A stretch of DNA of 64,000 nt from a virus. The stretch is from IMG/VR virus record IMGVR_UViG_3300021373_002787, positions 1 to 64,000 of that record; one strand, 5' to 3'. Every line of letters starts with the position of its first letter. The stretch's first letter is position 1. A model generated the notes under the pieces. That model made no database searches. It was not told where the DNA came from and worked only from the letters and a program-made list of their open reading frames with translations. Shown piece after piece: positions 13,658-46,271 of this stretch. The position numbers and the translations under genes are program-made.

Positions 13658-14050
13658 TTACATGTTTTCAAGGTCTGCTAATTCACTTTCGATATCATCT
13701 CCGCCCTCTTCAGAATCTTCAGCTCCCGCCTCTGCTTCAGCTCCGGCAGGTGCCTCTTCTTCTTTCTCTGCGTCGGCCTCTTCCTCTTTCTGTTCAGCAT
13801 ACCATTCGTTCCACTTTTGCTTGATTTCAGCAAGTTCGCCCTGTTTAAATGCATTTTGACCATATTTGTCGAAGAAGTAGTCTTCCAATTGCTTTTCATT
13901 CTCAGAATTAACAATTGCTCCAACTATCTCCGCAGATGGTATTGTTTTACCGTCCTCTAGTGTGATGTCGTCTACTGTAACCTCAGATTCTTCTCCAGGT
14001 TTCATAGTGTCTTCCTTAATGAATTGTTCAAATAATTTTACGTATTTCAT
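13658..14050 (-). CDS. Acidic prohead core protein (gp67/gp68-position) with capsid-targeting-like N-terminus
   Basis: MKYVKLFEQFIKE start; very acidic; lies between portal and protease as T4 67/68 do. Confidence 0.6.
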   Translation of the reverse strand: MKYVKLFEQFIKEDTMKPGEESEVTVDDITLEDGKTIPSAEIVGAIVNSENEKQLEDYFFDKYGQNAFKQGELAEIKQKWNEWYAEQKEEEADAEKEEEAPAGAEAEAGAEDSEEGGDDIESELADLENM

Positions 14051-23858: not shown

Positions 23859-23885
23859 TTATAGAGCGGACTAGTCCTCTGTTTC
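23859..23885 (-). promoter_or_regulatory. Putative middle promoter GAAAC-N17-TATAA
   Basis: Exact spacing; GAAAC lies in the last codons of uvsX, upstream of the helicase. Confidence 0.6.
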
Positions 23886-27388: not shown

Positions 27389-27799
27389 TTATTTTATTGT
27401 TGAATAGGCTTCAAACCATTCAGGTGTTGAAATAATCTCGCTTATTACGCTTTTGTCATCGACATTGATTTGAATTAATCCACCTTGTTTTTGGATAGAT
27501 TTCCAAAACTTCTTTACAACTCCGATTTTTTTATATTGATTTTCATCAAATTCAAGAACTTCAATTCCAGTAATTTTTAAGACATCGGTCGGCCTAACAA
27601 AGGAATGCATTCCAGATCCAACTGCATTTGTTTTTTCATCTCGACCCATTATTGTTCTTGAGTGAATAACTCCAAAATAGTTTAGTCTTACAAGGTCTGC
27701 TGGTTGAAAGGTTTTAGCATTCTTATATTTGCTTACAAAATCTTCTACCGACATATTTGCCTCGTTTACAAACTGTTCGAATAATTTTACGTGTTTCAT
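27389..27799 (-). CDS. Capsid-targeting-motif protein, stand-alone cassette
   Basis: MKHVKLFEQFVNE start; own AATATATA motif (27828-27835); flanked by twin terminators. Confidence 0.75.
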   Translation of the reverse strand: MKHVKLFEQFVNEANMSVEDFVSKYKNAKTFQPADLVRLNYFGVIHSRTIMGRDEKTNAVGSGMHSFVRPTDVLKITGIEVLEFDENQYKKIGVVKKFWKSIQKQGGLIQINVDDKSVISEIISTPEWFEAYSTIK

Positions 27800-31403: not shown

Positions 31404-32804
31404 CTACTTAAATTTTTTTTTAAGTTCATGTGCTTTTTCGTAGTATTCATATGAGGTCTTTTTATAGTCTTTACGTTGAGCATATAGATCACTCAGGATT
31501 CTTTTAAGAATTGAGTCCTCTTTTGAATAGACTACACCATTTTCACAGACAATTTCATCAGGATTCTTCCTACGTTCTTCGATTTGATCCTTTGGTATCA
31601 TATCGATATATGCATCAGGAGAAATGTTAAACTGTCTCATAACTGACGGATATAGGGATGCGAAGTCAAATGCACTTACTCCAGAATAATAACCGACGAT
31701 TGGTTGTTTTACAAATGCTCCAGCATATTTACCGTCCTTCTTGCCTTCTTCTCGATTGTAATCAACTCCAATCTTATGATTTGTTTCAGTAAGCTTTCTA
31801 GCCATTAGAGCCTCGGTAACTGCCACTGGAGAAGCTGCTTTGTAAAGTGGCATCTGTGTAATTGTTGCAAGAGTCAAGAGTACTTCCATTGACTTTAACT
31901 TTTGGTCAATGTAATATACGAGTATTGAATCGACAACATTATAATAAACATACTTTTGAAAGTCGTTTTCATAAAGGTCCTGTAGACCTCCAGTATATTT
32001 AATCTTTGCGACATCAAGTACTTGACCTGAAACAAAATCGAGTTTATTTGACTCTTTTACTTTTACACTTCGATCATACTTATCATAAAGTTGCATATAA
32101 TCGAGAATGCCCATATGGAGAGGACGACTATCATTATTATCAAGAGAACCGGTAACTGCAACATCCGTTAAGTCAATTTGAAGTCTCTTACAACGATTAA
32201 CAATATACTGCCAGTCATAATTGATAAAGTTCCAGCCTGTCATCATTGGAAACTTAGGAAGGAATTTATGTAAGAACGTATACAACATATTGTATTCGTC
32301 TTTAAACTTATAATAACTAAACTCCCAGTCCTGATCGTACTTTTTAAAGTGCTTAAGTGTATCGTCTTCGATCTTTTTAATTTGTTCAGCTGACAAATCT
32401 TCAAGACCCAGCACGATTGCCTTTCTCTCAGGTGTGATTATTGAGAATGTTAAGATTCTACTCTTAGCCTCTTCTGCTCTTGGAAAACCATCGAGGATTT
32501 CAGTTTCAATATCGACAAAGTATGTTCGTGGAATATTAAACTCAAATATTTCTTCGCGATCGCGTTCTGGTAGAGAATCCATAAAATAAACAAGCGAGAA
32601 CTTATTAAATGATCTCGCTCGCTGTCTTTTAATAGGTCTTCCGTCCCAATTTGTGAAACTTCCGTCTTTCCACTTATCTTTTTCTTCTGTAACTACCCAA
32701 TTCTCGAATTGACTGACTGGGTACCTCTTAAATGCTACTTTACCCTCTTTGTTATAATATGATACGATTACCTCTTGGTCTTTTTGTTCTATATCTAATA
32801 GCAT
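31404..32804 (-). CDS. DNA polymerase B, N-terminal half (3'-5' exonuclease + motif A; gp43A-like)
   Basis: ExoI FVDIETE, ExoII TGWNFINYDWQYI, ExoIII YNVVDS, YAGAFVK, motif A FDFASLYPSVM; ends within the fingers helix. Confidence 0.93.
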   Translation of the reverse strand: MLLDIEQKDQEVIVSYYNKEGKVAFKRYPVSQFENWVVTEEKDKWKDGSFTNWDGRPIKRQRARSFNKFSLVYFMDSLPERDREEIFEFNIPRTYFVDIETEILDGFPRAEEAKSRILTFSIITPERKAIVLGLEDLSAEQIKKIEDDTLKHFKKYDQDWEFSYYKFKDEYNMLYTFLHKFLPKFPMMTGWNFINYDWQYIVNRCKRLQIDLTDVAVTGSLDNNDSRPLHMGILDYMQLYDKYDRSVKVKESNKLDFVSGQVLDVAKIKYTGGLQDLYENDFQKYVYYNVVDSILVYYIDQKLKSMEVLLTLATITQMPLYKAASPVAVTEALMARKLTETNHKIGVDYNREEGKKDGKYAGAFVKQPIVGYYSGVSAFDFASLYPSVMRQFNISPDAYIDMIPKDQIEERRKNPDEIVCENGVVYSKEDSILKRILSDLYAQRKDYKKTSYEYYEKAHELKKKFK

Positions 32805-32854: not shown

Positions 32855-33229
32855 CACCCGGCTACTTAAATATTTAGCAATAATATGGGCTGCTTTATAA
32901 TTTGTTGCAAGCGGTACATTATGAACATCACATAGCCGCATTAGCATTGAAATATCTACATCATGTGGGTGTTTGTCGAGTGGGTCTCTAAAAAAGATAA
33001 CTGCATCCATTTCTTTTCGGGCAACCATTGCTCCGATTTCTGCATCTCCTCCAAGAGGACCACTGTTGACGCGCTCTACCTTTTCCACTCCAGCGTGCAA
33101 GATGCTGGATCCTGTTGTTCCCGTTGCTACAAGTTCTACGTCTTCCCGGTTGAAAAAGTCTAGTCTCTTCATAACAAAGGCAACCATGTCGGCCTTTTTG
33201 CCATCGTGTGCTATTAGTGCTATTTTCAT
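32828..33229 (-). CDS. mgsA: Methylglyoxal synthase
   Basis: IALIAHDGKK, ATGTTG, SGPLGGDAEIG, IFFRDPL..HPHDVDISML.RLCDVHNVPLATN: all canonical motifs. Confidence 0.96.
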   Translation of the reverse strand: MKIALIAHDGKKADMVAFVMKRLDFFNREDVELVATGTTGSSILHAGVEKVERVNSGPLGGDAEIGAMVARKEMDAVIFFRDPLDKHPHDVDISMLMRLCDVHNVPLATNYKAAHIIAKYLSSRVETSHDSRI

Positions 33230-33831
33230 TTATTATCATTTAAAAATTTAAGTATTTTATCCTTTATGCCGGACTGCTTAATTCCTTCGTTAGATCTTGG
33301 AGTATGTACAAAATTGATTAAACCTGGCTTATTATCCGAGCCATCTTTTGCCGCAAACCTATCTCCTAAGAATTCAACTCCCATATCTAAATCATCAATT
33401 GCAACCCAGTCCGTAACCTCGTTGTTATCTAACCAGTGTTGAATTTCCATACTGCGCTCTAATTCAAGATCTGCCCTAGATCTCAACCTCGACCATTCAC
33501 TTGGAAATAAGTCTTTAAACATTCCAGTAGCGTCAATCGGTCTCTTTATAATACCCTGAGACTCGTAGTAATCTCCCAATTCTTCCAGGTTTGCATGAAA
33601 TCTCCAATCTGATGATACTACTATCTCCGCTCCTGTTTCTTCTAGGATTGAGTTAAGTAATTTGACTGCTTTCTTGTCAAAGTTATCGAAACGCACTTCA
33701 ACTGGCCCATTAGCACCAAAGCCTCTACGGGGGTTATCTTCGGTAAAGAATGCCCTCTGTTTTTTAAAGCGAGTGCCCCAGTTATTTGAGAGGCAGATTA
33801 CACCATCATTGTCCAAAAAGATTACCTTCAT
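33226..33831 (-). CDS. HAD-superfamily phosphatase (type found in RNA-repair 'Swiss Army knife' proteins)
   Basis: MKVIFLDNDGV (motif I), IVVSSDWR, WVAIDDL. True start probably ATG 33831. Confidence 0.8.
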   Translation of the reverse strand: MKVIFLDNDGVICLSNNWGTRFKKQRAFFTEDNPRRGFGANGPVEVRFDNFDKKAVKLLNSILEETGAEIVVSSDWRFHANLEELGDYYESQGIIKRPIDATGMFKDLFPSEWSRLRSRADLELERSMEIQHWLDNNEVTDWVAIDDLDMGVEFLGDRFAAKDGSDNKPGLINFVHTPRSNEGIKQSGIKDKILKFLNDNK

Positions 33832-33836
33832 ATCGT

Positions 33837-33863
33837 TTATATAGGCAGGTTTACACTTGTTTC
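33837..33863 (-). promoter_or_regulatory. Putative middle promoter GAAAC-N17-TATAA
   Basis: Exact spacing, just upstream of the HAD ATG. Confidence 0.6.
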
Positions 33864-33868
33864 CTATG

Positions 33869-33908
33869 CTAATATAAACAAAAAGCCTGACATAAAAAAT
33901 GTCAGGCC
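33869..33908 (-). promoter_or_regulatory. Combined terminator hairpin and early-type promoter
   Basis: GGCCTGACAT-TTTTT-ATGTCAGGCT-TTTT hairpin whose loop and 3' arm form TTTTTATGTCA, followed 11 nt later by TATATTAG. Confidence 0.6.
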
Positions 33909-33943
33909 AATTATTTTGCAAAAGTGAGTGTTTTATTTATATC

Positions 33944-34264
33944 TTAATAAAGATCATCAAGTAGTGTTTGTAGACGATACACTAACTCACCCCACATATC
34001 AGAACCTGTTGAGACAGGTTCTAACCCAAGTTTATCAAAGCGTTTTGTTTTAGGTTTATATTTTCTCTTAATATTTTTTAGAGATTGTTCTAAATCTTTT
34101 TTTGCATCTGTTACTAAAGATTCATATTCATCTACAAGGCTATTGTAATCATCAACCCATTTATTTATGTCTTCTGCATCACTTTCTACAAGATCTTGAA
34201 GCGACATGGCCTCATTAACGAAGTCATTGCTTAAAAAGCTCTCAAATGTTTTTAAATGTTTCAT
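33944..34264 (-). CDS. Capsid-targeting-motif small protein
   Basis: MKHLKTFESFL...FVNE start. Confidence 0.75.
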   Translation of the reverse strand: MKHLKTFESFLSNDFVNEAMSLQDLVESDAEDINKWVDDYNSLVDEYESLVTDAKKDLEQSLKNIKRKYKPKTKRFDKLGLEPVSTGSDMWGELVYRLQTLLDDLY

Positions 34265-34316
34265 TTTTCTACGTTTTTTTTCAGTGCCGCTAGTTTAATA
34301 AAGTAAAGTGAGTATT

Positions 34317-34868
34317 TTATCTAAAGTCCGCTCTAACTTTAAACTTTCTATCTTTAATAATGTTATTCATCTCGTTAGAAAGGTAGGCTAAGATTTCCAT
34401 CTGAGCATTCTTAGCAGCTTCATCAACAGAATCTTCGGACATATATCTTGAAAAATCTTCCCAATTATTTGCAGTTTCTTTATACCAATCTTTAAACTCT
34501 TCAATTAGGTTCGTTGCTGGTACATCAAAACTCGGTAGTTCAATATATTCTTCATTGACTTTAGATTCATTAACTGTAAGTTCGTATCTGTACTTAAATG
34601 CTTTATCTGCTGTAGACTTTGACATCGTTTTAGCTTTGATGCCCATCTTTTTAAGTTTAGCTTCAGTTTCTTTGCGATCGTAATTATCTTCAAATCTTAA
34701 AACTAATTGATTACCCCAGTTTTCACTTTCGACATACTCAACAGAGTTTGCACCTATGCCATATGGGTTGTCTTTATACTTATTTACAAGATCTTGAAAT
34801 GTGATTGCCTCATTTGTAAGTTCACTAGCTTCATTTACAAATGATTCAAAGTTATTTAAGTGTTTCAT
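34317..34868 (-). CDS. Capsid-targeting-motif modular protein
   Basis: MKHLNNFESFVNE start; further LTNE and VNESKVNE junctions. Confidence 0.75.
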   Translation of the reverse strand: MKHLNNFESFVNEASELTNEAITFQDLVNKYKDNPYGIGANSVEYVESENWGNQLVLRFEDNYDRKETEAKLKKMGIKAKTMSKSTADKAFKYRYELTVNESKVNEEYIELPSFDVPATNLIEEFKDWYKETANNWEDFSRYMSEDSVDEAAKNAQMEILAYLSNEMNNIIKDRKFKVRADFR

Positions 34869-34879
34869 AATTATTTAAT

Positions 34880-35485
34880 TTATTTTACTTTAATTTCAGT
34901 TCTAATCTGTAAGGTCGATCTTCCTCCATAAATACCGATAACAAATGAAGGTATAATTTTATTTATGTCAAGCAAATATTGAAATGGAACAGCAGTTACC
35001 GGCAATTCTATAAACCAGACCCCATAATTATTATTAGCACTCATTTGATATTTTTTGAATGGTAATATTTTCACCAATTCGTTAATGATGTTTTCAACCT
35101 CTTGAGGGTATTCTCCAGTTTTGGCTTCATTTACAAAGGATTCAAAGTTATTTAAGTGTTTCATTTTTCTTTTCTTTTTTTTGTATTCCTCTTCTGCATC
35201 GCCTTGGCCTGCAGGAACATCACCAGAACCGTTCTCTGTAGATGTTGGAAGCTTGACTGGTCCGATTCCTCCGACGCTATCAATTGAGATATTTTCAACA
35301 ACCTCTGGGAGGCCTTCGTGTTTTGTTTCTGCAAAACCTTTTAATTGTTTTAGAGTCATACCACTGACAAGATCTTTTACTTTGTCTCTATAATCTGAAT
35401 CGACGTCCGAAATCTGCATATCGCCCTTTTTAACAGCGTATGCTACTCCCATTAATCTTTGCTGTGTTTTACTTTGACTTGGCAT
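34880..35485 (-). CDS. DUF3008-like domain fused to an internal capsid-targeting-motif module
   Basis: MPSQSKTQQRLMG.A.A.K.G...MTLKQLKGFAETKHEGLP (DUF3008-like by recall), then an internal MKHLNNFESFVNE starting at 35164. Confidence 0.65.
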   Translation of the reverse strand: MPSQSKTQQRLMGVAYAVKKGDMQISDVDSDYRDKVKDLVSGMTLKQLKGFAETKHEGLPEVVENISIDSVGGIGPVKLPTSTENGSGDVPAGQGDAEEEYKKKKRKMKHLNNFESFVNEAKTGEYPQEVENIINELVKILPFKKYQMSANNNYGVWFIELPVTAVPFQYLLDINKIIPSFVIGIYGGRSTLQIRTEIKVK

Positions 35486-35531
35486 TTACGAAATCTTCAT
35501 ATAGTTTTACGTGCTCTATTGTTTAAATATT

Positions 35532-35897
35532 TTATAGCTTTAGCCCTATCGAAATTGCAGTTACATATTCTTTGGCGTAAGCAGGTGATCTTTTAGATTT
35601 ACTTACAAATGGTAATTTCTTAATGCTTGATATGGCCCGCTTTACATCAAACTTATCTAATACATGGTTTCGTTCTGCTAGGTCTGTTGCCGTTGCCGTT
35701 AAATTATATCCACCAATTTTATTATCATAACTTGGCAAAGCTTGTATTTTCCAGTACATGTGTCCTGTTGCTTTATAAAGATCATCTTTGATTTCCTTTT
35801 TGTGGGCGTCTACTGCATCGACAACTTTTTTGTAATCTTCTCTGCTCATAGATTCATTTACGATTAAGAATTCTTCAAATAATTTTACGTGTTTCAT
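35532..35897 (-). CDS. Capsid-targeting-motif small protein
   Basis: MKHVKLFEEFLIVNE start. Confidence 0.75.
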   Translation of the reverse strand: MKHVKLFEEFLIVNESMSREDYKKVVDAVDAHKKEIKDDLYKATGHMYWKIQALPSYDNKIGGYNLTATATDLAERNHVLDKFDVKRAISSIKKLPFVSKSKRSPAYAKEYVTAISIGLKL

Positions 35898-35908
35898 TTT
35901 TATTTTGA

Positions 35909-36103
35909 TTAGAATTTTTGATATTTTGATGTAAAATCTATCATTTGGGGTCCCATTTTCCTAATAAAATCAATAGTTTGTTGAGATATATCTGAAGTGT
36001 TTTCTAAATAATCACAAGCTTCTTCAATTTCTTTCTTTAATGCTGATGTAGAGATTACCTTTGCTTCATTTACGAAATGTTCAAGTAATTTTACGTGTTT
36101 CAT
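35909..36103 (-). CDS. Capsid-targeting-motif small protein
   Basis: MKHVKLLEHFVNE start. Confidence 0.7.
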   Translation of the reverse strand: MKHVKLLEHFVNEAKVISTSALKKEIEEACDYLENTSDISQQTIDFIRKMGPQMIDFTSKYQKF

Positions 36104-36124
36104 TTTTATTAGTATAGTTTTTAA

Positions 36125-38221
36125 TTACCAAACGTAATCCATTTTTTTAATCTTAGAGATTCTGTCTTTAATTGACTTAGCGTAGTTCTTCACTTCTCTT
36201 GAATAGTAATTGCTACTATATCCTTCTTCTTCTTCACGCTTTGCTTGATTTGTATAGTCTACATATCTGTTAAAATCATCTAGAAGATTTTGCATTGCGT
36301 TTGAAGCATCTCTTAGTTTAACCTCACGGCCTTTAGGATCCTTTCCGATGATAACATCTCCCCATTTTCCTTTAGCACCAGTAGCTAAACCATCTTTAAT
36401 TTGAGAGGTAACTACATCAATTGCATTTAAGACTTCTTTATCGATAGGCATTTTAGCAGCTCTATCTGCTAGGATCATGTGGTATCTGTCAAGATTTTCT
36501 TTCTTAAAGTCTTTATCATTTTTAAACGCGATTGCTCCTTTTCTTGCAGTAGTTCTTTCATCACGTTTTGCCGAGGTAGAATATCTTGCTTTTAAAATGT
36601 CAAGATCAAGAACATATGCTCTATCAGCAAGTTCAGCTACTTTAGTAATACTTGAGATTCCAGATCCCCATGAGTCTCTAGCGTTAGATTTATTAAACCC
36701 AACAGCATCTTCTTTTTTAGATGTTTTTAATGTTCTATCTCTTGATCCTCCTAGTCTCCTTTGATATCCACTGGCAAGCCATTCATTTTTTCCATTAGTT
36801 GCACCTAATAGTGTGTTTGCGGGAATAGTTTTGTGCCAGGAGTCCGCTGCATATGGGTTCTCCTTTTCATTGGTTGTAAAATACAGATAAACCGCATTGT
36901 TTCTCTTTTCTTTTCTTGCTTCAACTGGATCCATTTCGATAATATCTACATCTTGGATTTTATCAAGTTGAATCTTTGCCATACCGTAGAACACTTTAGC
37001 AAAATCTTTTTGCATAGAGCTTGCGCCCGTTAAGATTGACTGTAACTTCATTGATTGAAATGCTTCTGCAATCATCTCTTCAGATTCATTAACTGACTCT
37101 TTTAGTGTTTCAACGAATTCATTAAATGATTCGTATATAAAATTATTTTTCATTTCTTTATTATTTTTATTATTTTTTGATTCAAATGTTCCTGTTGATG
37201 CTAGGTTGTAAAGGTGGTCGGCAATCTTTTTAGCTTTTGAACCTTTATGTCCATAAGTTGCAACTGTTTCTTCAGCCTCTTCGGGCATCATCTCTGTTAA
37301 TTCCCACGGATCAAACTCATCCATTAAATCATTTAAGATTTGTTTAGCCTCTTTTTCAAATTTATCAGCTTCGTTAACAAAAGATTCATCGAAGTTCCAT
37401 CCTGTAATTTCTTCTTCAGGGATATCAATGTAATCCATTAAATACTCTGCAAACTCTTCTGCATCATCTCTATTCTTAAATTCGAATGTATTGGCAGAAG
37501 TCATCTTACCCATTTTAGAGTAATCAACTCTAAATGCTTCACCAGCTTCTCTAGCGTATCTTACAGACACTTCAATTGCTGGCTTTTTGGATTTAGATAG
37601 GTGGGTAGGTTTTTTATGTTTTTTTAACCAATCGGTCTCGTGAAGTTGATCATCATCTTCTTCGTCTTCAACACCATCGCCGTCCTCATCATCGATTACG
37701 CTAGCATCAAGGCCAGTTCCTCTAGGTACACCAATTGTATCTGCTAGGGCTCCTGTAAGTCCTGGAGCCAGCTTTTTAGCTAGGTTTGGAGCTTTTTCCT
37801 CTAACTCTTCTTCTAGCTCTTCTGAGTTTTCTTTAATTGTAACTGGGAAAGTTTCTCCGTCAAATTCAAATTCTTCTTTACCTTCGTCTTTTGCTTTCTT
37901 AGCGGCAGCTACAAACGCTCTTCCTTCTTCAATGATTGCAATTTGCGAAAGCGCTCTTTTTCCAAATGTAGAAAGCGAGATACCTTCTTCCGAAACGTTA
38001 AAGTATTTTGTATTTCTTCTGATCCACTTTGAAGAATCTTTAGAATATTCTTTTAAGATTGCATCAAATTCTTCCTGCGTAATTTTTCCGTCGGCAATTG
38101 CTTCAAGCATTTTATTTCTAACTCTAGCGCTTTTTCCAACTTGTACTGCAGGGTGATTTTCAGTGTATCTTCTCTTAAGGGTTATTTTACTTCCCTCATT
38201 TAAAAAATCTTGAAAATTCAT
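36125..38221 (-). CDS. Large modular putative internal head polyprotein
   Basis: MNFQDFLNE start; internal FDESFVNE and YESFNEFVE junctions; late motif at 38245-38252. Confidence 0.7.
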   Translation of the reverse strand: MNFQDFLNEGSKITLKRRYTENHPAVQVGKSARVRNKMLEAIADGKITQEEFDAILKEYSKDSSKWIRRNTKYFNVSEEGISLSTFGKRALSQIAIIEEGRAFVAAAKKAKDEGKEEFEFDGETFPVTIKENSEELEEELEEKAPNLAKKLAPGLTGALADTIGVPRGTGLDASVIDDEDGDGVEDEEDDDQLHETDWLKKHKKPTHLSKSKKPAIEVSVRYAREAGEAFRVDYSKMGKMTSANTFEFKNRDDAEEFAEYLMDYIDIPEEEITGWNFDESFVNEADKFEKEAKQILNDLMDEFDPWELTEMMPEEAEETVATYGHKGSKAKKIADHLYNLASTGTFESKNNKNNKEMKNNFIYESFNEFVETLKESVNESEEMIAEAFQSMKLQSILTGASSMQKDFAKVFYGMAKIQLDKIQDVDIIEMDPVEARKEKRNNAVYLYFTTNEKENPYAADSWHKTIPANTLLGATNGKNEWLASGYQRRLGGSRDRTLKTSKKEDAVGFNKSNARDSWGSGISSITKVAELADRAYVLDLDILKARYSTSAKRDERTTARKGAIAFKNDKDFKKENLDRYHMILADRAAKMPIDKEVLNAIDVVTSQIKDGLATGAKGKWGDVIIGKDPKGREVKLRDASNAMQNLLDDFNRYVDYTNQAKREEEEGYSSNYYSREVKNYAKSIKDRISKIKKMDYVW

Positions 38222-38243
38222 ATTTAATTGTTTCTTTGTTTTT

Positions 38244-39509
38244 TTATATATCTTTCTTAACTAAGAACTGAGAAAACGTAAGAAGATTCGACTCATCGAT
38301 AGGACTCTCTTGTGTTTTTAACTTTTGATGGTTCAAATAAGTCTTAAAAGGCATTACGCTTGATTCGTTACTCTTTAACATAACAATTGCCTCAATTTTA
38401 TCGACAATTGTATTGATTTGCTCCATTAAGTCTGCATTTATAATATCAGTCTCTTTTGCTCTTTTCTTTCTAAATGAACCAATTGCAATCTTATATAGTT
38501 CTGAAAGAACCCTATTGTTTACGTATTCAATTGTCTTTTCGTTCTTGATAAATTTAGTATTCAATTCAAATTCAGGTCGATCACTAAAGTCTGCGGAATC
38601 AAAACTAACACCAACATATTTTGCTGCATTCTCATTAACATATGCGTTAAATACATTTGAAATTAGTTCAATGTATCTCTCGTCTGCTTGGTCTGATTCA
38701 AGTTGAATATTATCAACATCATATTCAGAAAAGAACTCAACTAGGTCTAATAGTGAAATTTGATATGTGTCGCTTGGTTTTCTAGACTCACTAACCTCAG
38801 TTTTTGTTCCACTAAGTTTAAAGTTTTTTACCGTCTTGCCATCAAAGAAATTAATAACTAAAGAATCAATATCTCCATCAAGATCTTCATTAAGAGCCGT
38901 CTTACTTAACGAATTATTAAAAATGTTATATGCTCTTCTGGTAAAACTTAACGCTTCATATGCTTGATTTCTTTCGGCATCACTCATTTCTAATAGTTTT
39001 ACTAGCTCATCTTTCTGATGAGAACTCAATACTCCTTTAAAAACAACCTGTGGTCTTTGAACATCTAATTTATCTGCCCATTCAAAAAGAACCTTTGGGT
39101 CTCTAATAACCTTCTTTATTAGTGTATTGTCTAGAGGGTTCATTACCTGAATATGTGTTAAGATAAGCCCGTTCTTTGGTGTTTGATCGTATTTAATGTC
39201 AATTGTTTGACTGTCTGTCATGTAGTCAAAACCAAACTTCCAGTCAAGCGGCATTTCAGCCTTTGTCACGTCGTCAACCGATTCAAAATATTTAATTGCA
39301 TTCTCATAATATTTAGCGATTGTGCGATCTACTTTATCCAACGGCTTCTTTTTACCACTCTTAAAATAGGTGTAACCAACTGAATCGTTTTGAACGTGAA
39401 ACGAAGATGCCTGTACTTTTTCAGTAACAACACATGGAGACTTTAGCATCTCCATAAAATCTTCTCTATTCGTTGATTCAAAATATGTATGTAAGCTTTG
39501 TAGTGCCAT
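38244..39509 (-). CDS. Degenerate ATP-dependent ligase-fold (Rnl-like) protein
   Basis: TEKVQAS (motif I with Lys kept), FGFDY, LILTHI, PQVVFKG, IDSLVI, FKL align in order with ligase motifs I-V. Confidence 0.5.
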   Translation of the reverse strand: MALQSLHTYFESTNREDFMEMLKSPCVVTEKVQASSFHVQNDSVGYTYFKSGKKKPLDKVDRTIAKYYENAIKYFESVDDVTKAEMPLDWKFGFDYMTDSQTIDIKYDQTPKNGLILTHIQVMNPLDNTLIKKVIRDPKVLFEWADKLDVQRPQVVFKGVLSSHQKDELVKLLEMSDAERNQAYEALSFTRRAYNIFNNSLSKTALNEDLDGDIDSLVINFFDGKTVKNFKLSGTKTEVSESRKPSDTYQISLLDLVEFFSEYDVDNIQLESDQADERYIELISNVFNAYVNENAAKYVGVSFDSADFSDRPEFELNTKFIKNEKTIEYVNNRVLSELYKIAIGSFRKKRAKETDIINADLMEQINTIVDKIEAIVMLKSNESSVMPFKTYLNHQKLKTQESPIDESNLLTFSQFLVKKDI

Positions 39510-39516
39510 AGTTTTA

Positions 39517-40632
39517 TTATTTAGCGATGTCTTCTGGTAGAGGCAGACCTGACATTCCTAGTTTAACTTCAAATTCTTTAAAGATCTCATCTCTCTTTTT
39601 AGGAAACTTAAACATTGATGAGTTAATTAAATCTCTTAAACTCTCATATGTCATTAAATCACTTACTTTTGCGCCATCGAAGAGAAGGTCTGCTATCTCT
39701 TCTGGTAGTCTTGTAATTTCTTTATCGAATTCTTTTAGTAACTTTGCGTTTTTAACCAATCCTCTCTTACCAACAAATGATTTACGAACCTTTACAACTC
39801 CTTGATTCAAGCGAATTACATATGCTTCGTACTCTTTTGTTTCTCCCTCTTCTGTTTGATCTATAATCTCAACAAATGATTTACCAATTGCCGACATTAG
39901 GAGGATGTTTCTATATGCACCTTTATATTTTGACTCGTCTTTTGTAAAGTCTGGAGAGTGGTACATAAATCTACTCCAATTAATATCTCTTGATAACATT
40001 AGGTCGACTTGACCTACTCCATTATTTGATTTACCCTCAATAGGAGCAGCGATTGATACCTGCTGGAATCCTACAGCCATTGAGGTGTCTAACCCTTTTT
40101 CTTTCAATAAATCATTCATATCGAAAAGAACTTTAGCCAGTGAAGTGTCTAAGTGTCCTGCAATCTTATCGGCAGAAACAGCAATATCAATATCTCCGCT
40201 AGTCTCTCCTGGATTCTTTTTTCCAGCGCTTCCAATAACTGCAGCATCCTCTCCGATACCAGCAATTCCAATATGAGGAAAAACATTTTTCTCGATCCAT
40301 TCTAGAGTTGCTGCAACTTCATGTTGTTCAAATGGTCTGGACTGTGCAATTGCATTACCACTTTCACTTACAAACTGTTCAAACGCAGCTGCAACATATT
40401 TACGACCGTGTTTATTATGTAATATGTCTGAGATTAGACCTTCTTTGTCAATCCCTTTAGGGTTACCAATTTTATAACTTAGCGACCACATCTTTCTTAA
40501 TTCAGCAGTTGACGTCTTTTTAAGTTTTTTGTACTCTCTGCGGATTGATTCAGGATCCCTCTTTGAAGAAAAGTTTGATCGCGGAATCTTATCTTCACTT
40601 ACAAACTGTTCAAATAATTTAACGTATTTCAT
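39517..40632 (-). CDS. Pol-beta-superfamily nucleotidyltransferase with capsid-targeting N-terminus
   Basis: IGSAGKK...SGDIDIAV (GS...DxD) plus a third Asp in QVDLM; MKYVKLFEQFVSE start. Confidence 0.75.
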   Translation of the reverse strand: MKYVKLFEQFVSEDKIPRSNFSSKRDPESIRREYKKLKKTSTAELRKMWSLSYKIGNPKGIDKEGLISDILHNKHGRKYVAAAFEQFVSESGNAIAQSRPFEQHEVAATLEWIEKNVFPHIGIAGIGEDAAVIGSAGKKNPGETSGDIDIAVSADKIAGHLDTSLAKVLFDMNDLLKEKGLDTSMAVGFQQVSIAAPIEGKSNNGVGQVDLMLSRDINWSRFMYHSPDFTKDESKYKGAYRNILLMSAIGKSFVEIIDQTEEGETKEYEAYVIRLNQGVVKVRKSFVGKRGLVKNAKLLKEFDKEITRLPEEIADLLFDGAKVSDLMTYESLRDLINSSMFKFPKKRDEIFKEFEVKLGMSGLPLPEDIAK

Positions 40633-40640
40633 CTCTATTT

Positions 40641-40994
40641 TTACTTATTATGATATTCTATTTGGTCTTTTAAAAATTCCTTAATTGTTGGAATTACATC
40701 ATCTTCAGAATTAATTTCATCAGCCCAGTTGTCATCACCAAAAACCTCTCCATTTCTAAAAAATCGAATAGATCCGTAATCACGATCATTATCTTTGTAT
40801 TTAGGTCCAGTCAGAATATAATCCATTCTATTTGCCAGAATTCCCTCTTTTTCAATAGTTGCCGGATACCCAGCCTTTTTAAGTATCTTAGCCGCTTTTC
40901 TCAGGTTTAATTTTACACCTCTATCTCTTCCTACTTCTTTAGCAGTTATCGTGTATTCACCTATAAACTGCTCAAATAATTTAACGTATCTCAT
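40641..40994 (-). CDS. Capsid-targeting-motif small protein
   Basis: MRYVKLFEQFIGE start. Confidence 0.75.
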   Translation of the reverse strand: MRYVKLFEQFIGEYTITAKEVGRDRGVKLNLRKAAKILKKAGYPATIEKEGILANRMDYILTGPKYKDNDRDYGSIRFFRNGEVFGDDNWADEINSEDDVIPTIKEFLKDQIEYHNK

Positions 40995-41022
40995 TATTAG
41001 TTGTTTGTTTTTAATTACAGTA

Positions 41023-41052
41023 CTAATATAATTAAAAAGTCTGACATAAAAA
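41023..41052 (-). promoter_or_regulatory. Putative early promoter TTTTTATGTCA-N11-TATATTAG
   Basis: Third copy with identical spacing, inside the array. Confidence 0.6.
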
Positions 41053-41060
41053 ATTCTGGC

Positions 41061-41666
41061 TTATTTTATTATGTGTTTTCTTAATTTGTCATAGTATTTA
41101 TAAAGATATTTCGGCACCATCTTTTCGAATGCTTCTCTATCATCATTTGCAAGTGCTTCTCTAGTCTTTGTACCGCTAGGTCCTCCTTCTGCTCTTGCAT
41201 CTACCATTTCTAGTTTAAAATCCGGATGTACAACCGTATCGGTCTTTGGTCCAGTAACATATTTAATCTGTGGTGTGTATGCCTTGATTCTGTCGCTTCC
41301 AGCACCTACACCAACAGTCTCATATCCTTGCTCTCTTAAGAATCTAACAAACCAAGGAATTACTGTTCTACCATAGCTATTTGGGTAAATAAAGAAATCT
41401 GCGATCTCCTTCTCGTTCTTTGCAACCTCTTGTCCAATTTGAAGTAGAAGGCTTTCTGGGAATGGAGACTCTTCACGCTTTGAAACTATTTGCATCGCAA
41501 CTACTGGCTTACCAAACATTTTGGCAGCATTTTTAAGGGCTGCGATATGTCCATTATGAAATGGCTGGAATCTACCAGGCATTACCACGACTTCAGTACC
41601 CTCAATTGGTTGAGTGGTGTCTACCGCCTCACTAATAAACTGCTCGAATAGTTTTACGTGTTTCAT
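41061..41666 (-). CDS. HxGH (cytidylyl/adenylyltransferase-like) nucleotidyltransferase with capsid-targeting N-terminus
   Basis: PGRFQPFHNGH, GAGSDR, SGTKTREAL...F..MVP; MKHVKLFEQFISE start. Confidence 0.85.
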   Translation of the reverse strand: MKHVKLFEQFISEAVDTTQPIEGTEVVVMPGRFQPFHNGHIAALKNAAKMFGKPVVAMQIVSKREESPFPESLLLQIGQEVAKNEKEIADFFIYPNSYGRTVIPWFVRFLREQGYETVGVGAGSDRIKAYTPQIKYVTGPKTDTVVHPDFKLEMVDARAEGGPSGTKTREALANDDREAFEKMVPKYLYKYYDKLRKHIIK

Positions 41667-41685
41667 CTTTTTCTTTATTTTTTGC

Positions 41686-42132
41686 TTAGCCTATATAATA
41701 GCTACTAGATTTATCTATATTAAGTTCTTTACCATAGTCATCAGTAAATGCATTGTATGGTTTTTTAGCACTTAGTGAAAATGAATTTGCGTCAATTTCT
41801 TGGATTAAGAAATGTAAAGATTCTACTCTAGCCATTCTTTCTAAACCTGGTCTAATAGTTTCTATAGCTTGGTCAATATCAAACCCATCTTTGGCGTTAA
41901 ATGTCATAAATGTTTTAGAACCTGGTTTAATTGTAACTCTACTAGTTGATAAAGATTGAATATCACTAGGTTTTACGAATTTTTTAACCGATGAAACAAA
42001 ACCCTTTGAATTTTTCCATGGCATATAATTAGTAGATGCTCCTATTCCACCTGCTCTCATTTCAGTATCGCGGTCTACTCCATAGTACTCGGCTTCATTT
42101 ACAAATTGTTCAAATAGTTTTACGTGTTTCAT
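41686..42132 (-). CDS. Capsid-targeting-motif small protein
   Basis: MKHVKLFEQFVNE start. Confidence 0.75.
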   Translation of the reverse strand: MKHVKLFEQFVNEAEYYGVDRDTEMRAGGIGASTNYMPWKNSKGFVSSVKKFVKPSDIQSLSTSRVTIKPGSKTFMTFNAKDGFDIDQAIETIRPGLERMARVESLHFLIQEIDANSFSLSAKKPYNAFTDDYGKELNIDKSSSYYIG

Positions 42133-42174
42133 TTTGATGCTATATTTTATTTAAATTAGATGTTTTCCAGCTTT

Positions 42175-42432
42175 CTAACATCTGCACATCGCATAACCTA
42201 GAACGTTTTCAACATATGATTCTAATTCTTCTATAGTAGCATATATTTCATCTGGATCTGTATTTGGATCGTAAAGACCTTTATCCATTAAATAGTCAAT
42301 AAACATGTCCATGTCTTCGTTATCCCAAACATCTCTTCCTTTCATTGTTTTAGCCCACCATTTTTTAGCCTCTTTCTCGATTTTCTTATCGGCTTCATTT
42401 ACAAATTGTTCGAATAGTTTTATGTGTTTCAT
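42175..42432 (-). CDS. Capsid-targeting-motif small protein (paralog of 42775..43023)
   Basis: MKHIKLFEQFVNE start; near-identical to the paralog. Confidence 0.8.
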   Translation of the reverse strand: MKHIKLFEQFVNEADKKIEKEAKKWWAKTMKGRDVWDNEDMDMFIDYLMDKGLYDPNTDPDEIYATIEELESYVENVLGYAMCRC

Positions 42433-42441
42433 TGCTTCTTT

Positions 42442-42756
42442 TTATCTTTTAATTTCTATATTATAATAATGTTCATTATCACCATTTTCTTTAACAACCT
42501 GTAGAGCTTTTGCACCAAAATCTTTAATAGCCTCTCTAATATCTTTTGCAATAGATTGGCCCTTCATACCTCTATATGTTATGAAAATATTTTTTGTGTC
42601 TTTAGGTCCTTTTGGAAAAGCATAAGGAACAAATTTACTTTTCATTTCTTGAGCAGTGCCATGATTCCAATCAAGTTCATTTTCAAGGTGCTTGATTAAT
42701 TCATCAACGTTTACAGATTCATTAATATATTGTTCGAATAGTTTTATGTGTTTCAT
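42442..42756 (-). CDS. Capsid-targeting-motif small protein
   Basis: MKHIKLFEQYINE start. Confidence 0.75.
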   Translation of the reverse strand: MKHIKLFEQYINESVNVDELIKHLENELDWNHGTAQEMKSKFVPYAFPKGPKDTKNIFITYRGMKGQSIAKDIREAIKDFGAKALQVVKENGDNEHYYNIEIKR

Positions 42757-42774
42757 CTTGGTGTTATATTTTAT

Positions 42775-43023
42775 TTAATAGTCAAACTCATAACCTAGAA
42801 CGTTATCAACATATGATTCTAGTTCTTCTCTAGTATCACTTAGTTCATCTGAATTTGGATCTACTAGACCTTTATCCATTAAATAGTCGATGAACATGTC
42901 CATGTCTTCGGCATCCCAAGAATCTCTTCCCTTCATTGTTTTAGCCCACCATGTTTTAGCCTCTTTCTCGATTTTCTTATCGGCTTCATTTACAAATTGT
43001 TCAAATAGCTTTACGTGTTTCAT
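42775..43023 (-). CDS. Capsid-targeting-motif small protein (paralog of 42175..42432)
   Basis: MKHVKLFEQFVNE start. Confidence 0.8.
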   Translation of the reverse strand: MKHVKLFEQFVNEADKKIEKEAKTWWAKTMKGRDSWDAEDMDMFIDYLMDKGLVDPNSDELSDTREELESYVDNVLGYEFDY

Positions 43024-43031
43024 TTTACTCC

Positions 43032-44321
43032 TTATTTTTTGTATGCTAAGATACTTCTAATTTGATGGATTGGTGCAAAAATACCAGTGTACTTATAGAC
43101 TTTACCTTTATAAACAAATGTAATACCTTCGGTAGGTACAATGTTCTCTAATCCTCCAACTGCTGCAACTCTACTTAATTCATGTTCAAGTTTTTCAACA
43201 TCTGTCGCATCTCCATTTTTTCTAATAGTATTAATAGCAGTCTCGATCTCTTTGCGCATCTGCTCTCCAGCCTGTGTTGGGTTTGCGGATAAGAAAGCCT
43301 CCATATGTTGCATCATCTCTGTACCAACCTCTAGGAAAAGATTTTCAAGAGGAGCATAGATTTGCTTCTTAATCATCTTTTCATTCTTTTTCTCGAAATC
43401 ACTGTACTCCTTTGTTAAATCGGGACCCATGTCCTTTTTCATTTTAGCAACACTATATGATTTGTTGATCCCTCCAAGTCGATTAGCAATTCCTTCAATT
43501 GACTCTTCTGGAATATCTATGTCAAGTCCTCTAACGACGTTAACCGCTCTACCAACGACAAAATCCTGTACTGTTGAATTTAAGTTAATACCTGCATCCT
43601 GCATGATACCTTTTAGTTTGTCATTATAATACTTTGCTCTCGCTTTGGTATTCTTAAATGGCTTGATAGGAATATCCTGTGGTCCACGAACATAGAACAT
43701 CTCTTGTGCTGCAGCGTTTGCGTCTGCTATCATCTTACCAAGATCTCTACCGGCTTGTTTATCTTCTCCAACTACTTTTCCATCAATGTCGTATTCTACA
43801 ATACCATGAAATACTAGAAGGTCTTGACCATAAGGAACTGTGTTCTGTGTTACTGGAGTCATAATTTCGACGCTTGCGAATTTTGTACCTTCACCAAACA
43901 TCTTTTCTTTATCACCAGGAGAAAGGGCTCCAATTGAAGCACTTAGATCGCGCATTGCTGTGTTGTATGCAATTTCAATGTCTCCTCTGTCTTTGAATTT
44001 TGCGGCAAGATCGGCTGCTGTCATTGCGTTTTCACCAGCATTCTTAAGATGACTCTTATTTCTTGCAGCAATTAGTTGACCATTCTTCCATGAAATTGAA
44101 AGCTGCTGTCCGTCAGTTTTTTCTTGAACGAAGTTTTCTGGACCAAATGCTCCTTGAACTGTAGCATCAATCATATCTTTTACATCCGCCATTGTTAAAC
44201 CTAAGTCTTCAAACGGATGGGTAAGGTGGCCATATGCTCCACCTTCAAATAACGGTTCGAGGTCAGTATTTCTGACCTCTCTTTCCGTTAAAAATTCTTC
44301 GTATGTATATAATTTATTCAT
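43032..44321 (-). CDS. ATP-dependent ligase-fold (KxDG) protein with capsid-targeting-like N-terminus
   Basis: EKTDG (I), SVEIM (III), LVFHG (IIIa), EGITF (IV), YKYTG (V); EGGAYGHLTHPFED leader; MNKLYTYEEFLTE start. Confidence 0.65.
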   Translation of the reverse strand: MNKLYTYEEFLTEREVRNTDLEPLFEGGAYGHLTHPFEDLGLTMADVKDMIDATVQGAFGPENFVQEKTDGQQLSISWKNGQLIAARNKSHLKNAGENAMTAADLAAKFKDRGDIEIAYNTAMRDLSASIGALSPGDKEKMFGEGTKFASVEIMTPVTQNTVPYGQDLLVFHGIVEYDIDGKVVGEDKQAGRDLGKMIADANAAAQEMFYVRGPQDIPIKPFKNTKARAKYYNDKLKGIMQDAGINLNSTVQDFVVGRAVNVVRGLDIDIPEESIEGIANRLGGINKSYSVAKMKKDMGPDLTKEYSDFEKKNEKMIKKQIYAPLENLFLEVGTEMMQHMEAFLSANPTQAGEQMRKEIETAINTIRKNGDATDVEKLEHELSRVAAVGGLENIVPTEGITFVYKGKVYKYTGIFAPIHQIRSILAYKK

Positions 44322-46271
44322 TTATCCTAGTGAAGATTGTAAAGCTCCTACCATAGAACCATAATCTCCTTTATGTTTTGAAATTAAACCATCGACTATT
44401 TCTTGTGCTTTTTCTTCGTCAAATTTATCTCCAAATGCTTTTTGAAGTACTGCAAAAGCATATTCTTTGAAGTCATCATCTGATTTTACTTCAGCTTCGG
44501 TAACTGCTGATTCTTTAATATCAAATGAATGAACTCCACCACCTGACATAATATCTCTCCACTCAACGTGATTTAACTCTACTTCTGGATATAGTGTCTT
44601 TACTTGATCGATTACATAGTCTGGATTTACTTTAAATCCGTATCTAACCTCTAGTTTTTTCTTATCAAGTTTTGTAACTTTTGGTGGTGTATTACCACTA
44701 TACGCTATGCGAAGTTGATATTGTACATCGCTCTTATTTAGACCTTCGCTTACTTCAACATCCGCTGATTCCATTGGCTCAAACATTTTAACCATCATTT
44801 CAAAGTCTTTCTTAAAATAACTTCTTAGGTAACCTCTAACCGCATCGTCAATTAAACCATCTCTATCTCTTTTGTATTCTGGCCAATCATCCCAGTGCCA
44901 ATCAACTGCATTTTCCGCAGCATCTCTTAGTTTTCTATCAAAAGGTGATGGCATTTTCTTAGGACTACCAGCATCTTTATGGATTTGTTGATTCATGATG
45001 CTTTGATCTGAAGAACCCCATTCGTTGACTACTGATTCTCCTGCAAAGTCTTCTGCATTCTCTTTGTCCTCTTTATCTACTGAAGTTACTTTGTACGTTT
45101 CACCGTCAACCTCAAATTCATCTTCACCGTCTGCGATTGCCTTTGCTCTTGCAGCTCCAAACTCATTTCCTTCAAGAATTCTAGCCTCTAGTACTTCTTT
45201 ACTTTCGAATTGAGCGTGAAAATCAGCGATTAATTTTGCGGCCATTGTTTTCTCTCCAATAGAATCTAGGTATAGTGCAGTTCCTTCAACGATTCCTTGT
45301 CCTCCCCAGCCAGCGGCATTTGAAATTCTAGAAGCTTCATTATATAATGCGACTTTAATTCTATCCGCTGAAACTTTAACTTCAATATTACCAAGTCCGC
45401 TTGGTTTTGTTACGATCGGAGAAAGTGCTCCTTTGATATTTTTAGCAATTGCATTTCCCTCTCTAGAAAAATTAGCGTCCTCCATTGCAGCTTGGAAAAT
45501 AACTTTAACTGCCCCAAGTTGCATATTTTTACCATCTACTAAACTTGTGTACATCTTACCAAATAGGTGATTGTATTGAGTTACTACCTTCTTAGCATCT
45601 CTCTTATATTCGATTGGAAAACTTCCAGTTGCTTCAAAAACAAACTTTTCAAAACGAGTAGTTTCAACTGTTTCAAATGCAGGTTTTAGGTCATTATCTT
45701 CATAAGTATCTGCCATATACCATTTTCCGTCTCTTTCATCATATAGATAGATGAATTCTGCCCATGACTGTTTAGCATCTCCAATAAAGTCTCTAATGTA
45801 GCCTGCGTTTCCTGACATTGTCTCCGTATCGTCGTTATAATAATTAATCTTCTTTGGATCAGCCTCTAAACCAGATCCTGCTCCATTTTGAATAACAACG
45901 TCGATGTTTTTTCTCTTAGATCCTGAGTAACCCTTCTTGATTAGTGGTAACATATTTTCTGGATAACCGTCATAATGCATATAAACAGCTTGAATGTCTC
46001 CCTTTTTATTAATTTTACCAAAGAATGAACGTGTTCCCTCTTCAATTAGAGAAAGTGATTCATTAAGATCAGTACCTTCTAATCTTGAAAAGAACTCTCC
46101 TCTCTTTTCTTCGTCTAGTTCAGATACTTTTGTTACTCCGTATTCTGCCAATAGATCTTTGAAACTGCGTGCAGTTTCTTCTCTAGCCTCTGTTTGTTTT
46201 TGTGCTTCCTCTTCAGCTAATCTTTGTGATCTAGCCTTTGTGAAGTCTTCAAATGAATTTAATCCAGCCAT
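44322..46271 (-). CDS. Large modular putative internal head polyprotein
   Basis: MAGLNSFEDF start; modules separated by LNE/IEE/ILE/VNE/VSE/VTE; includes a TRS...YMHYDGYP domain; late motif at 46309-46316. Confidence 0.7.
   Translation of the reverse strand: MAGLNSFEDFTKARSQRLAEEEAQKQTEAREETARSFKDLLAEYGVTKVSELDEEKRGEFFSRLEGTDLNESLSLIEEGTRSFFGKINKKGDIQAVYMHYDGYPENMLPLIKKGYSGSKRKNIDVVIQNGAGSGLEADPKKINYYNDDTETMSGNAGYIRDFIGDAKQSWAEFIYLYDERDGKWYMADTYEDNDLKPAFETVETTRFEKFVFEATGSFPIEYKRDAKKVVTQYNHLFGKMYTSLVDGKNMQLGAVKVIFQAAMEDANFSREGNAIAKNIKGALSPIVTKPSGLGNIEVKVSADRIKVALYNEASRISNAAGWGGQGIVEGTALYLDSIGEKTMAAKLIADFHAQFESKEVLEARILEGNEFGAARAKAIADGEDEFEVDGETYKVTSVDKEDKENAEDFAGESVVNEWGSSDQSIMNQQIHKDAGSPKKMPSPFDRKLRDAAENAVDWHWDDWPEYKRDRDGLIDDAVRGYLRSYFKKDFEMMVKMFEPMESADVEVSEGLNKSDVQYQLRIAYSGNTPPKVTKLDKKKLEVRYGFKVNPDYVIDQVKTLYPEVELNHVEWRDIMSGGGVHSFDIKESAVTEAEVKSDDDFKEYAFAVLQKAFGDKFDEEKAQEIVDGLISKHKGDYGSMVGALQSSLG

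Follow-up and report, generated by a model that had tools for sequence, protein, structure and literature searches.

Leader-coding DNA as a candidate in-frame joint for the turnover of putatively head-tagged cassettes in a large uncultured marine phage

Introduction

Here we describe a part of the IMG/VR virus record IMGVR_UViG_3300021373_002787 in which a short N-terminal leader peptide, and with it the DNA that encodes it, recurs on a series of otherwise unrelated genes. The stretch analysed (hereafter the window) comprises the first 64 kb (positions 1 to 64,000) of an 86,216-nt record with a CheckV completeness of ~28%; it has a GC content of 35.7%, carries all of its long open reading frames (ORFs) on the minus strand, and belongs to a large uncultured marine phage with a T4-type head module. 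We lean towards a reading in which the tag-coding DNA would serve as a joint where the phage's own recombination gains, loses, swaps and fuses cargo modules tagged for the head.

The relatives used for comparison are IMG/VR metagenome contigs (L-numbers), of which many are present, with lengths of up to ~210 kb. Among GenBank phages, a blastn search with positions 38000-45900 of the window gave no match, and the closest by capsid protein were the uncultured 462-kb phage LR756500 (51%) followed by the Lak phages of Prevotella (36-41%).

Results

A leader-coding repeat in a variable gene array

Between a helicase gene (46308-47816) and the HAD/polB-N genes lies a hyperplastic array (33944..46271, minus strand) in which conserved backbone genes (44322-46271, 43032-44321, 38244-39509, 36125-38221 and the DUF3008 part of 34880-35485) alternate with variable leader-tagged cassettes, separated by poorly conserved spacers of 8-66 nt. 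An initial annotation of this DNA, made from its letters alone, had pointed to a degenerate 42-nt string at 42091-42132, 42391-42432 and 42982-43023, and these are exactly the three matches in the window, with matches in 0 of 100 shuffled sequences; they form the first 14 minus-strand codons of genes 41686-42132, 42175-42432 and 42775-43023. Two further repeats named there were recovered as well. Positions 34827-34868 and 35123-35164 agree at all but 2 of 42 nt (40/41 identical over the span first compared), the second copy lying within ORF 34880-35485. Exact copies of TTCACTTACAAACTGTTCAAA stand at 40363-40383 and 40594-40614, at a distance of 231 nt, and encode FEQFVSE twice in ORF 39517-40632.

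A repeat search placed the leader DNA in a 12-copy family within 33000-45000, and a regular expression run over the window found 14 minus-strand sites that encode MKHVKLFEQFVNE-like leaders: 11 at ORF starts in the array (33944-43023), one internal and in frame at 35164, and a further two outside the array, likewise at ORF starts (14050 and 27799). The 22 kb of the record beyond the window gave no site. A weight-matrix scan recovered all 14 and added one decayed, non-coding copy (35519..35481) with a score of 23.4, where the best of 20 shuffles reached 20.0; the repeat search also has a copy here, spanning 35481-35541. For some of the copies the repeat extends into ~20 nt of A-rich upstream spacer.

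Read in the direction of transcription, all on the minus strand, the leader DNA of the array begins the genes for an 82-aa protein (MKHVKLFEQFVNEA; 42982..43023), a 104-aa protein (MKHIKLFEQYINES; 42715..42756), an 85-aa protein (42391..42432) whose gene is a paralogue of the 82-aa gene (91% over 178 nt), a 148-aa protein (42091..42132), a cytidylyltransferase-like protein (gene 41061-41666; leader 41625..41666), a 117-aa protein (MRYVKLFEQFIGE; 40953..40994) and a 371-aa putative nucleotidyltransferase (NTase; 40591..40632). This last leader includes copy 1 of the exact 21-nt repeat (40594-40614); it is followed by the body of a 77-codon module (40384..40593), which belongs to an indel unit of 231 nt whose placement is ambiguous by the 21-nt repeat, and then by copy 2 of the repeat (40363..40383), the internal FEQFVSE, with K-Y-V-A-A-A just before it. 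Further downstream come the leaders of a 64-aa gene (36062..36103) and of a 121-aa gene (35856..35897), the decayed copy (35481..35519) between the 121-aa gene and the DUF3008 start codon, and a full internal leader (MKHLNNFESFVNEA; 35123..35164) that links DUF3008 to a 94-aa cargo in ORF 34880-35485. The 94-aa cargo with its stop codon and spacer (34869..35122) makes up, together with one leader copy, a 296-nt unit; the leaders of a 183-aa gene (34827..34868) and of a 106-aa gene (MKHLKTFESFLSND; 34223..34264) follow. Outside the array, a leader (27758..27799) starts a 136-aa gene, which has an orthologue in L081 and is replaced by a different, untagged gene in L082 and L084.

The decayed copy (ATA GAG CAC ... 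= IEHVKLYEDFVNA) sits in the spacer behind the 121-aa gene, and its end overlaps the DUF3008 ATG out of frame; L081 has neither the 121-aa gene nor this leader remnant.

The name NTase, given to ORF 39517-40632 by the initial annotation, found no backing from Pfam, PHROGs, a phmmer search of the PDB or a PDB profile search, all of which were without a match. The sole hints are a G-S...D-I-D pattern seen by eye and a weak Atlas lead (PF01909, 33% of a rank-26 cluster).

Several breakpoints among close relatives fall in the repeat

Relatives share a backbone order of helicase, a large 'MAGLNSFEDF' protein, a 429-aa 'MNKLYTYEEFLTE' protein, a 421-aa protein, a large 'MNFQDFLNE' protein, the DUF3008 protein and HAD/polB-N. 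Cassettes with an MKH leader stand at varying places between these backbone genes, and more distant relatives have none there. In the comparison of the window with L081 (97.7% DNA identity), the indels of at least 90 nt all fall in the array, at 33.9-44.9 kb, and the adjacent 4.9 kb of polB and ribonucleotide reductase genes holds no structural difference; gene content thus varies between near-identical relatives within a confined region.

The initial annotation had predicted that indels among relatives would have their breakpoints in the repeat, and three cases bear this out: the 77-codon module, the 296-nt segment and a four-cassette block, each with leader repeat at both ends. In all three (231 nt, 296 nt and 1.3 kb), one phage has the repeat once where its relative has two copies with an insert between them. 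ORF 39517-40632 consists, in the window and in L081, of leader, 77-codon module, FEQFVSE and a conserved body. Its homologues in L082, L084 and L119/L041 pass straight from leader to body without the 231-nt module, the edges of which are the exact 21-nt repeat, and L083 and L153 hold other modules at the same joint, with the linkers ESFVVE or IEEFVNE + ESFISE. Because the internal copy of the repeat is preceded by K-Y-V-A-A-A, where a true leader has K-Y-V-K-L, it looks like a former full leader that has decayed.

At the DUF3008 gene the window's extra 296 nt consist of the 94-aa cargo, a stop codon, spacer and leader, set between two leader copies; in L081 and L082 this unit is missing, and DUF3008 is joined via a full leader directly to a homologue of the 183-aa cargo. 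The window's two copies are identical at 40/41 nt, and each has several mismatches to the one copy in L081, in flanks that are ~95% identical. The third case is a 1.3-kb block of four cassettes (42979..41684) that is an insertion relative to L153, whose lone 61-nt spacer and leader align to both ends of the block.

Single leaders also recur, nearly unchanged, on other cargo. The leader of the 148-aa gene is identical at 39/39 nt to that of an unrelated 119-aa gene in L081, that of the 117-aa gene at 38/39 nt to the leader of the 294-aa L082 homologue of ORF 39517-40632, and that of the 104-aa gene at 38/39 nt to one that heads a 147-aa gene of L083 with no relation to it.

The large array proteins encoded at 36125-38221 and 44322-46271 show whole-module differences (200-540 nt) among the window, L081 and L082. 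Their joints read ESVVTEA, ESFVNEAD and KESVNE, which suggests that they may be polyproteins processed by a protease.

In addition, genes inserted upstream of the array in L099 (~1400-1448), L139 (~1199) and L140 (~1195) terminate in a leader-like remnant and a stop codon (...LLLFEQFINKA*, ...LLFEQFINKH*), a possible footprint of leader-bounded transfer.

Junctions across the family

Insertions were collected from 81 sources (the window, L081-L159 and L067), an event being an insertion of at least 90 nt whose flanks are blocks of at least 150 nt with at least 85% identity, and the 189 pairwise events reduced to 71 unique inserted segments. Junctions were scored with strict motifs for the leader core, [FLYIM][EDNQ]x[FY][VILTF]x[ED], and the linker, E[SA]x[VILTEK]xE. 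Scored in the shorter allele, 28/71 junctions touch a strict motif; the background rate among equal-sized windows is 4.1% (0.041; binomial p ~1e-20). When the segments were grouped into 47 clusters, a motif was present in at least one member of 17 and in all members of 15. The overlap between flanks in the motif-class events ranges from -8 to 316 nt and is mostly 7 to 86 nt. An informal reading of the remaining junctions placed many at looser x-E-[AG] joints inside large proteins and others in spacers.

Leader pairs are typically 70-79% identical, and near-identical leaders (at least 37/39 nt) on unrelated cargo make up 5/169 within-locus pairs and 20/5006 between-locus pairs, a ~7-fold enrichment within loci. 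Judged by these identities, leader and cargo are reassorted among close relatives.

Silent-site conservation in leaders and internal linkers

For codons that encode the same residue, the leaders of the window use the same codon in a fraction of 0.676 (506/748), the expectation being 0.505 from genome codon usage and 0.537 from the codon usage of 5' ends; the excess lies mostly in codons 2-6 (AAA CAC GTA AAA) and 11. Across the sampled loci, leaders on unrelated cargo gave 0.636 (595/936) within loci and 0.632 (13631/21564) between them, and in diverged orthologues (40-80% identity) the leaders reached 0.62-0.78 and their cargo 0.50-0.61. The control came from genes that have no leader (30-80% identity; 2,500 pairs sampled from 17,772), where codons 2-13 gave 0.58-0.67 and codons 14-90 gave 0.38-0.57. 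There is thus a general 5'-end constraint on synonymous codons in this phage family. The claim that leader DNA is kept as a homology arm finds no sign here because its modest excess is what any 5' gene end shows: silent-site conservation in the leader is not above that of codons 2-13 of ordinary genes, and this same control led us to reject a special conservation of the N-terminal leader.

Internal linkers behave differently from this expectation. At 68 unique ES[VAKTI][VIT][NT]E[AS] sites, pairs in which both flanks are unrelated use the same codon in 0.734 of cases (7481/10196) vs 0.472 expected, and within-locus pairs in 0.803 (147/183) vs 0.469 expected. This excess cannot be a 5' effect, and it fits either spread by copying or recombination, or selection at the DNA level. 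The window itself has one site only of this narrow linker pattern, at 44513.

A leader with the features of a capsid-targeting propeptide

The 76 unique tagged proteins from the 81 sources fall into 34 unrelated cargo clusters with one common leader, for which alignment over the clusters gave the consensus MKHxKLFEQFxNE, then A. M1 and E13 are invariant and K2, L6, F7, E8 and F10 nearly so. The cargo is mostly ORFan, with Pfam matches in 2/34 cluster representatives (CTP_transf_like and DUF5661) and none in 32/34. In 12/14 window leaders [VIL]-x-E stands at residues 11-13, and in the other two V-N-E stands a few residues later; at the level of sequence, the leader therefore has the form of a propeptide with a protease-type x-x-E end, as in the capsid-targeting sequence (CTS) system of T4. 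It may also resemble the CTS of T4 IPIII and IPII in sequence.

The head module of the window, all on the minus strand, comprises a gp20-type portal (14070-15668; PF07230, 228.8 bits), a gp21-like S77 prohead protease with a long fused C-terminal part (11681-13606; PF03420, 49.9 bits, cut-off 27) and a gp23-type major capsid protein (10104-11591; PF07068, 151.7 bits). The portal, Peptidase_S77 and Gp23 matches each lie above the Pfam cut-off, by which the module is of T4 type. Between portal and protease lies a leader-tagged, acidic 130-aa ORF (13658..14050), and a tagged acidic ORF occupies this place in 9/9 inspected full-length head modules of relatives as well (12 loci listed), some of which have a protease identity of just 56-64%. 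In the T4 gene order the portal-protease position is that of the core proteins gp67 and gp68. Furthermore, the capsid protein starts with MANLINE-A, the same I-N-E-A motif as at the leader end, and the protease with M-E-N-I-K-D-L-L-I-V-E, so that the N-termini of both fit the x-x-E motif of the leader; the MANL(I/L)NEA start is found in 6/10 listed capsid genes of relatives.

The leader is probably a capsid-targeting tag that is removed by a protease, because it ends in a gp21-type x-x-E and the phage has a T4-type head module; the synteny of the tagged ORF at the core position and the capsid and protease N-termini that fit the motif point the same way. The gp21-like S77 protease is presumed to be the enzyme that removes it. 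T4 gp21 recognises L/I-X-E and cuts after E, according to the relevant passage of PMC9026906, and the 10-residue CTS of T4 IPIII is described as enough to load foreign proteins into the head (passages in PMC9026906 and PMC3012670). The initial annotation's statement that any captured ORF becomes automatically packaged would hold by analogy with these T4 CTS fusions, as outlined in that part of PMC9026906.

Leader-tagged cassettes were also seen within the head modules of two relatives, in the gap between protease and capsid genes of L164 (4538-5116) and between the portal and the core-position ORF of L168 (1842-2102).

Discussion

A proposed mechanism for in-frame cassette turnover

The mechanism that we favour starts from the peptide. 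A leader of 13-14 residues at the N-terminus would mark proteins for incorporation into the prohead core, and the conservation of this tag would turn its 39-42 nt of coding DNA into a dispersed direct repeat, with ~21-nt linkers of the ESVVxEA type acting as a similar repeat inside the two large polyprotein-like genes. During infection, a UvsX-like recombinase (23871-24980, minus strand), gp46/47-like nuclease subunits (19311-22084), gp32 and a RuvC-like resolvase, all of which the window encodes, may occasionally pair such short repeats, whether the two copies lie on the same genome or on those of relatives infecting the same cell. The outcome would be in-frame deletion, insertion, replacement or fusion of cargo modules with the tag or cut site kept, and products in frame with the tag would survive. 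The comparative pattern is observed; recombination as its cause is what we infer. Most likely the joint role of the repeat is a by-product of peptide conservation, the DNA of the N-terminal leader not being selected for it.

A stronger version, in which tag and cut-site DNA is maintained as a portable in-frame recombination joint, a protein-level analogue of the integron in a widespread marine and huge-phage clade, is a tentative proposal that we think rather less probable. If true, linker and leader DNA conserved at silent sites would enable the general recombination machinery of the phage to plug any module into protein strings, which would be loaded automatically into the capsid and freed by the head protease; the phage would thereby gain injected proteins that can be reassorted quickly.

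Alternative explanations and evidence on both sides

Several observations weigh against a role of the repeat as joint. The repeats measure just 21-42 nt and are usually imperfect, and a strict motif is missing in 43/71 events (30/47 clusters), some junctions lying in spacers. At the 121-aa and 106-aa genes, which are missing in L081, the downstream junction is not an intact leader. The silent-site identity of N-terminal leaders (~0.63-0.68) equals that of ordinary gene 5' ends, and a general concerted evolution of leaders within a genome was rejected, given 0.636 within and 0.632 between loci. Events in related loci are moreover not fully independent, and selection for intact modules biases in the same direction; random breaks combined with such selection could give the same junction pattern, and the sequences are all metagenome assemblies. 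Of the initial proposal that the tag doubles as a recombination joint, the part that stands is the indels and swaps at the repeat and the presence of recombination genes, whereas many junctions lack a strict motif and the N-terminal leaders show no homology-arm signal.

The same points nourish the chief rival, to which we give a minor though real share of the probability: the DNA repeat would be the passive footprint of a functional peptide, with breaks made anywhere by illegitimate or microhomology-based events and whole-module variants surviving selection. Leaders that are no more conserved at silent sites than other 5' gene ends and the 30 motif-free clusters are as it predicts, as are the insertion of the 121-aa gene relative to L081, which ends in the decayed leader out of frame at the DUF3008 ATG and shares at most a few nt at its junction, and the 106-aa gene difference with a junction in spacer DNA. 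Precise in-frame joints made by random breakage should, on the other hand, be far rarer than joints between repeats of 21-86 nt; leaders identical at 38-39/39 nt on unrelated cargo stand out from the 70-79% of typical pairs; and the silent sites of the linkers lie far above the codon-usage expectation, for which selection on the peptide alone is no explanation. A different reading, which we hold to be improbable, takes the leader for a shared 5' translation or mRNA element, or for a tag with another destination (secretion, membrane or another assembly), on ordinary accessory genes. Codons 2-6 do hold most of the silent-site excess, as an effect on translation start predicts, and 32/34 cargo clusters are without a Pfam family. 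Yet it is the peptide that stays constant from cargo to cargo (M1 and E13 never vary), and the leader ends in a cut motif of the encoded protease type, sits on the core-position ORF in 9/9 inspected full-length head modules and recurs inside proteins as a module joint, which would make no sense for a role in starting translation. Assemblers are known to go wrong at short exact repeats, and the loci all come from metagenome contigs, so chimeric or collapsed assemblies that jump between strains or repeat copies at shared 21-42-nt words must be considered as well. Such an artefact we regard as very improbable: ORF 39517-40632 is without the module in three contigs that have diverged from one another and come from different samples (L082, L084 and L119) and has it in two (the window and L081), the 296-nt unit is missing from L081 as well as from L082 although their leaders have diverged separately, and reading frames are intact in all variants.

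Comparison with known systems

The internal protein (IP) loci of T-even phages are, with the T4 CTS and PeSL shuffling, the closest known parallels. Work by Repoila et al. (1994, EMBO J 13:4181) is said to have found that the number, order and identity of leader-tagged ORFs vary among close relatives, and reportedly proposed that conserved short sequences at ORF borders mediate the shuffling, the arms being intergenic promoter/palindrome sequences of ~70 bp. The array resembles these IP loci in the variable number, order and identity of its tagged ORFs, and differs in that the repeat is the coding leader and the spacers are short (8-66 nt) and poorly conserved; because the repeat is the coding leader, exchanges here can be in frame and create fusions. 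In T4 itself, gp67 and gp68 are core proteins that are also processed, and here the portal-protease ORF carries the tag; both phages have a gp20/gp21/gp23 head module. The T4 CTS of IPI-III and Alt, removed by gp21, is, in the passages of PMC9026906 and PMC3012670 that treat it, likewise a short N-terminal propeptide with an x-x-E end on unrelated, fast-evolving proteins, and diverse T-even IPs are described in sections of PMC3012670, PMC9026906 and PMC12373910 as sharing only the leader. The present case differs in its distant host and lineage (nearest major capsid proteins 51% and 36-41%) and in its far larger scale, with 14 tags in 64 kb plus polyprotein-like genes with tag-like linkers.

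Cassettes bounded by promoter-early stem-loops (PeSLs), along with mini-circles, are reported for the T4-type phages RB49 and phi1 (Arbiol et al. 2010, PMC2839356), where the text in question invokes the phage recombination system with homology patches of <50 bp. As that text has it, non-essential ORFs of hyperplastic regions are bordered by short, dispersed repeats, a repeat in one phage is repeat-ORF-repeat in a close relative, and no dedicated recombinase is needed, all as in the array; PeSLs, however, are intergenic and combine a sigma-70 promoter with a terminator (PMC2839356, same passages), whereas the array repeats are protein-coding. Sites resembling promoters (35 vs 42.6 +/- 6.4) and terminators (10 vs 6.1 +/- 2.8) are not in excess in the array. 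A regulatory repeat of the PeSL type was rejected on these grounds, the repeat being coding and its upstream spacer poorly conserved.

In phiKZ-like giant phages and SPN3US there are many head-internal proteins, multiple x-x-E sites and a T4-related prohead protease, as in our case, and ejection and inner-body proteins are cut at S/A-X-E; the descriptions of these phages in the relevant part of PMC9026906 contain no shared portable N-terminal tag or joint DNA repeat.

The initial annotation had spoken of an integron-like array without an integrase. Tyrosine integrase PF00589 had no match in the 86-kb record, itself only ~28% complete, with 14/14 control genomes positive, so that the absence of an integrase holds for the part at hand. 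Like an integron, the array strings together promoterless and mostly ORFan cassettes that all point the same way and are separated by a joint that recurs. The joints seen here, however, are direct repeats in coding DNA where integrons have attC hairpins, and insertions are not limited to one attI end.

Three elements are already known, namely the tag concept from the T4 CTS, variable loci of leader-sharing internal proteins from T-even phages and repeat-mediated cassette shuffling without a dedicated recombinase from PeSLs. The present case stands apart by the lineage, the scale, a coding in-frame joint that gives fusions and polyprotein-like strings, and the silent-site conservation of the linkers. 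The strings KLFEQF, KLFEEF, LFEQFVNE and LFEQFINE were not found in the literature searched, and we claim this for that literature alone.

Distribution and significance

At least 117 IMG/VR stretches carry the exact leader DNA pattern, and the contigs concerned reach 675 kb. In the 462-kb uncultured phage LR756500.1, positions 251782-282903 hold the same order, with helicase, backbone proteins, DUF3008 and polB-N.

Tag-like N-termini are seen in LR756500 as well, e.g. MEYVKLFEEFVND and MEFVKTYLEFINE.

If tag-coding DNA does act as a joint, an abundant group of uncultured marine phages would far exceed T4 in the number and modularity of the proteins that they package in the head and probably inject, with a simple turnover rule in which the joints lie at tag and cut-site DNA. 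Such cargo would be easy to catalogue from metagenomes by a search for the leader, would point to candidate anti-defence or host-takeover proteins, and would offer a natural design for loading foreign proteins into the capsids of non-model phages. From an evolutionary standpoint, a conserved peptide signal would also set where recombination gives viable products, and the idea behind PeSLs and the IP locus would be extended from intergenic regulatory repeats to coding, in-frame joints.

Other features of the window

The window also encodes a DnaB-like helicase, ribonucleotide reductase and a split family-B polymerase. The latter is divided between two genes ~5 kb apart, a C-terminal part at 25325-26527 and an N-terminal part at 31404-32804, and between these halves lie the ribonucleotide reductase genes and the leader-tagged ORF 27389-27799.

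A second repeat, a 32-nt word with 91% identity, occurs at 33869-33908 and 41023-41054. The first copy forms the array's only strong terminator-like hairpin (33884-33908), and the other sits in a 66-nt spacer that is missing from L081. Finally, a 2,252-aa ORF at 57179-63937 adjoins tail-fibre-like genes.

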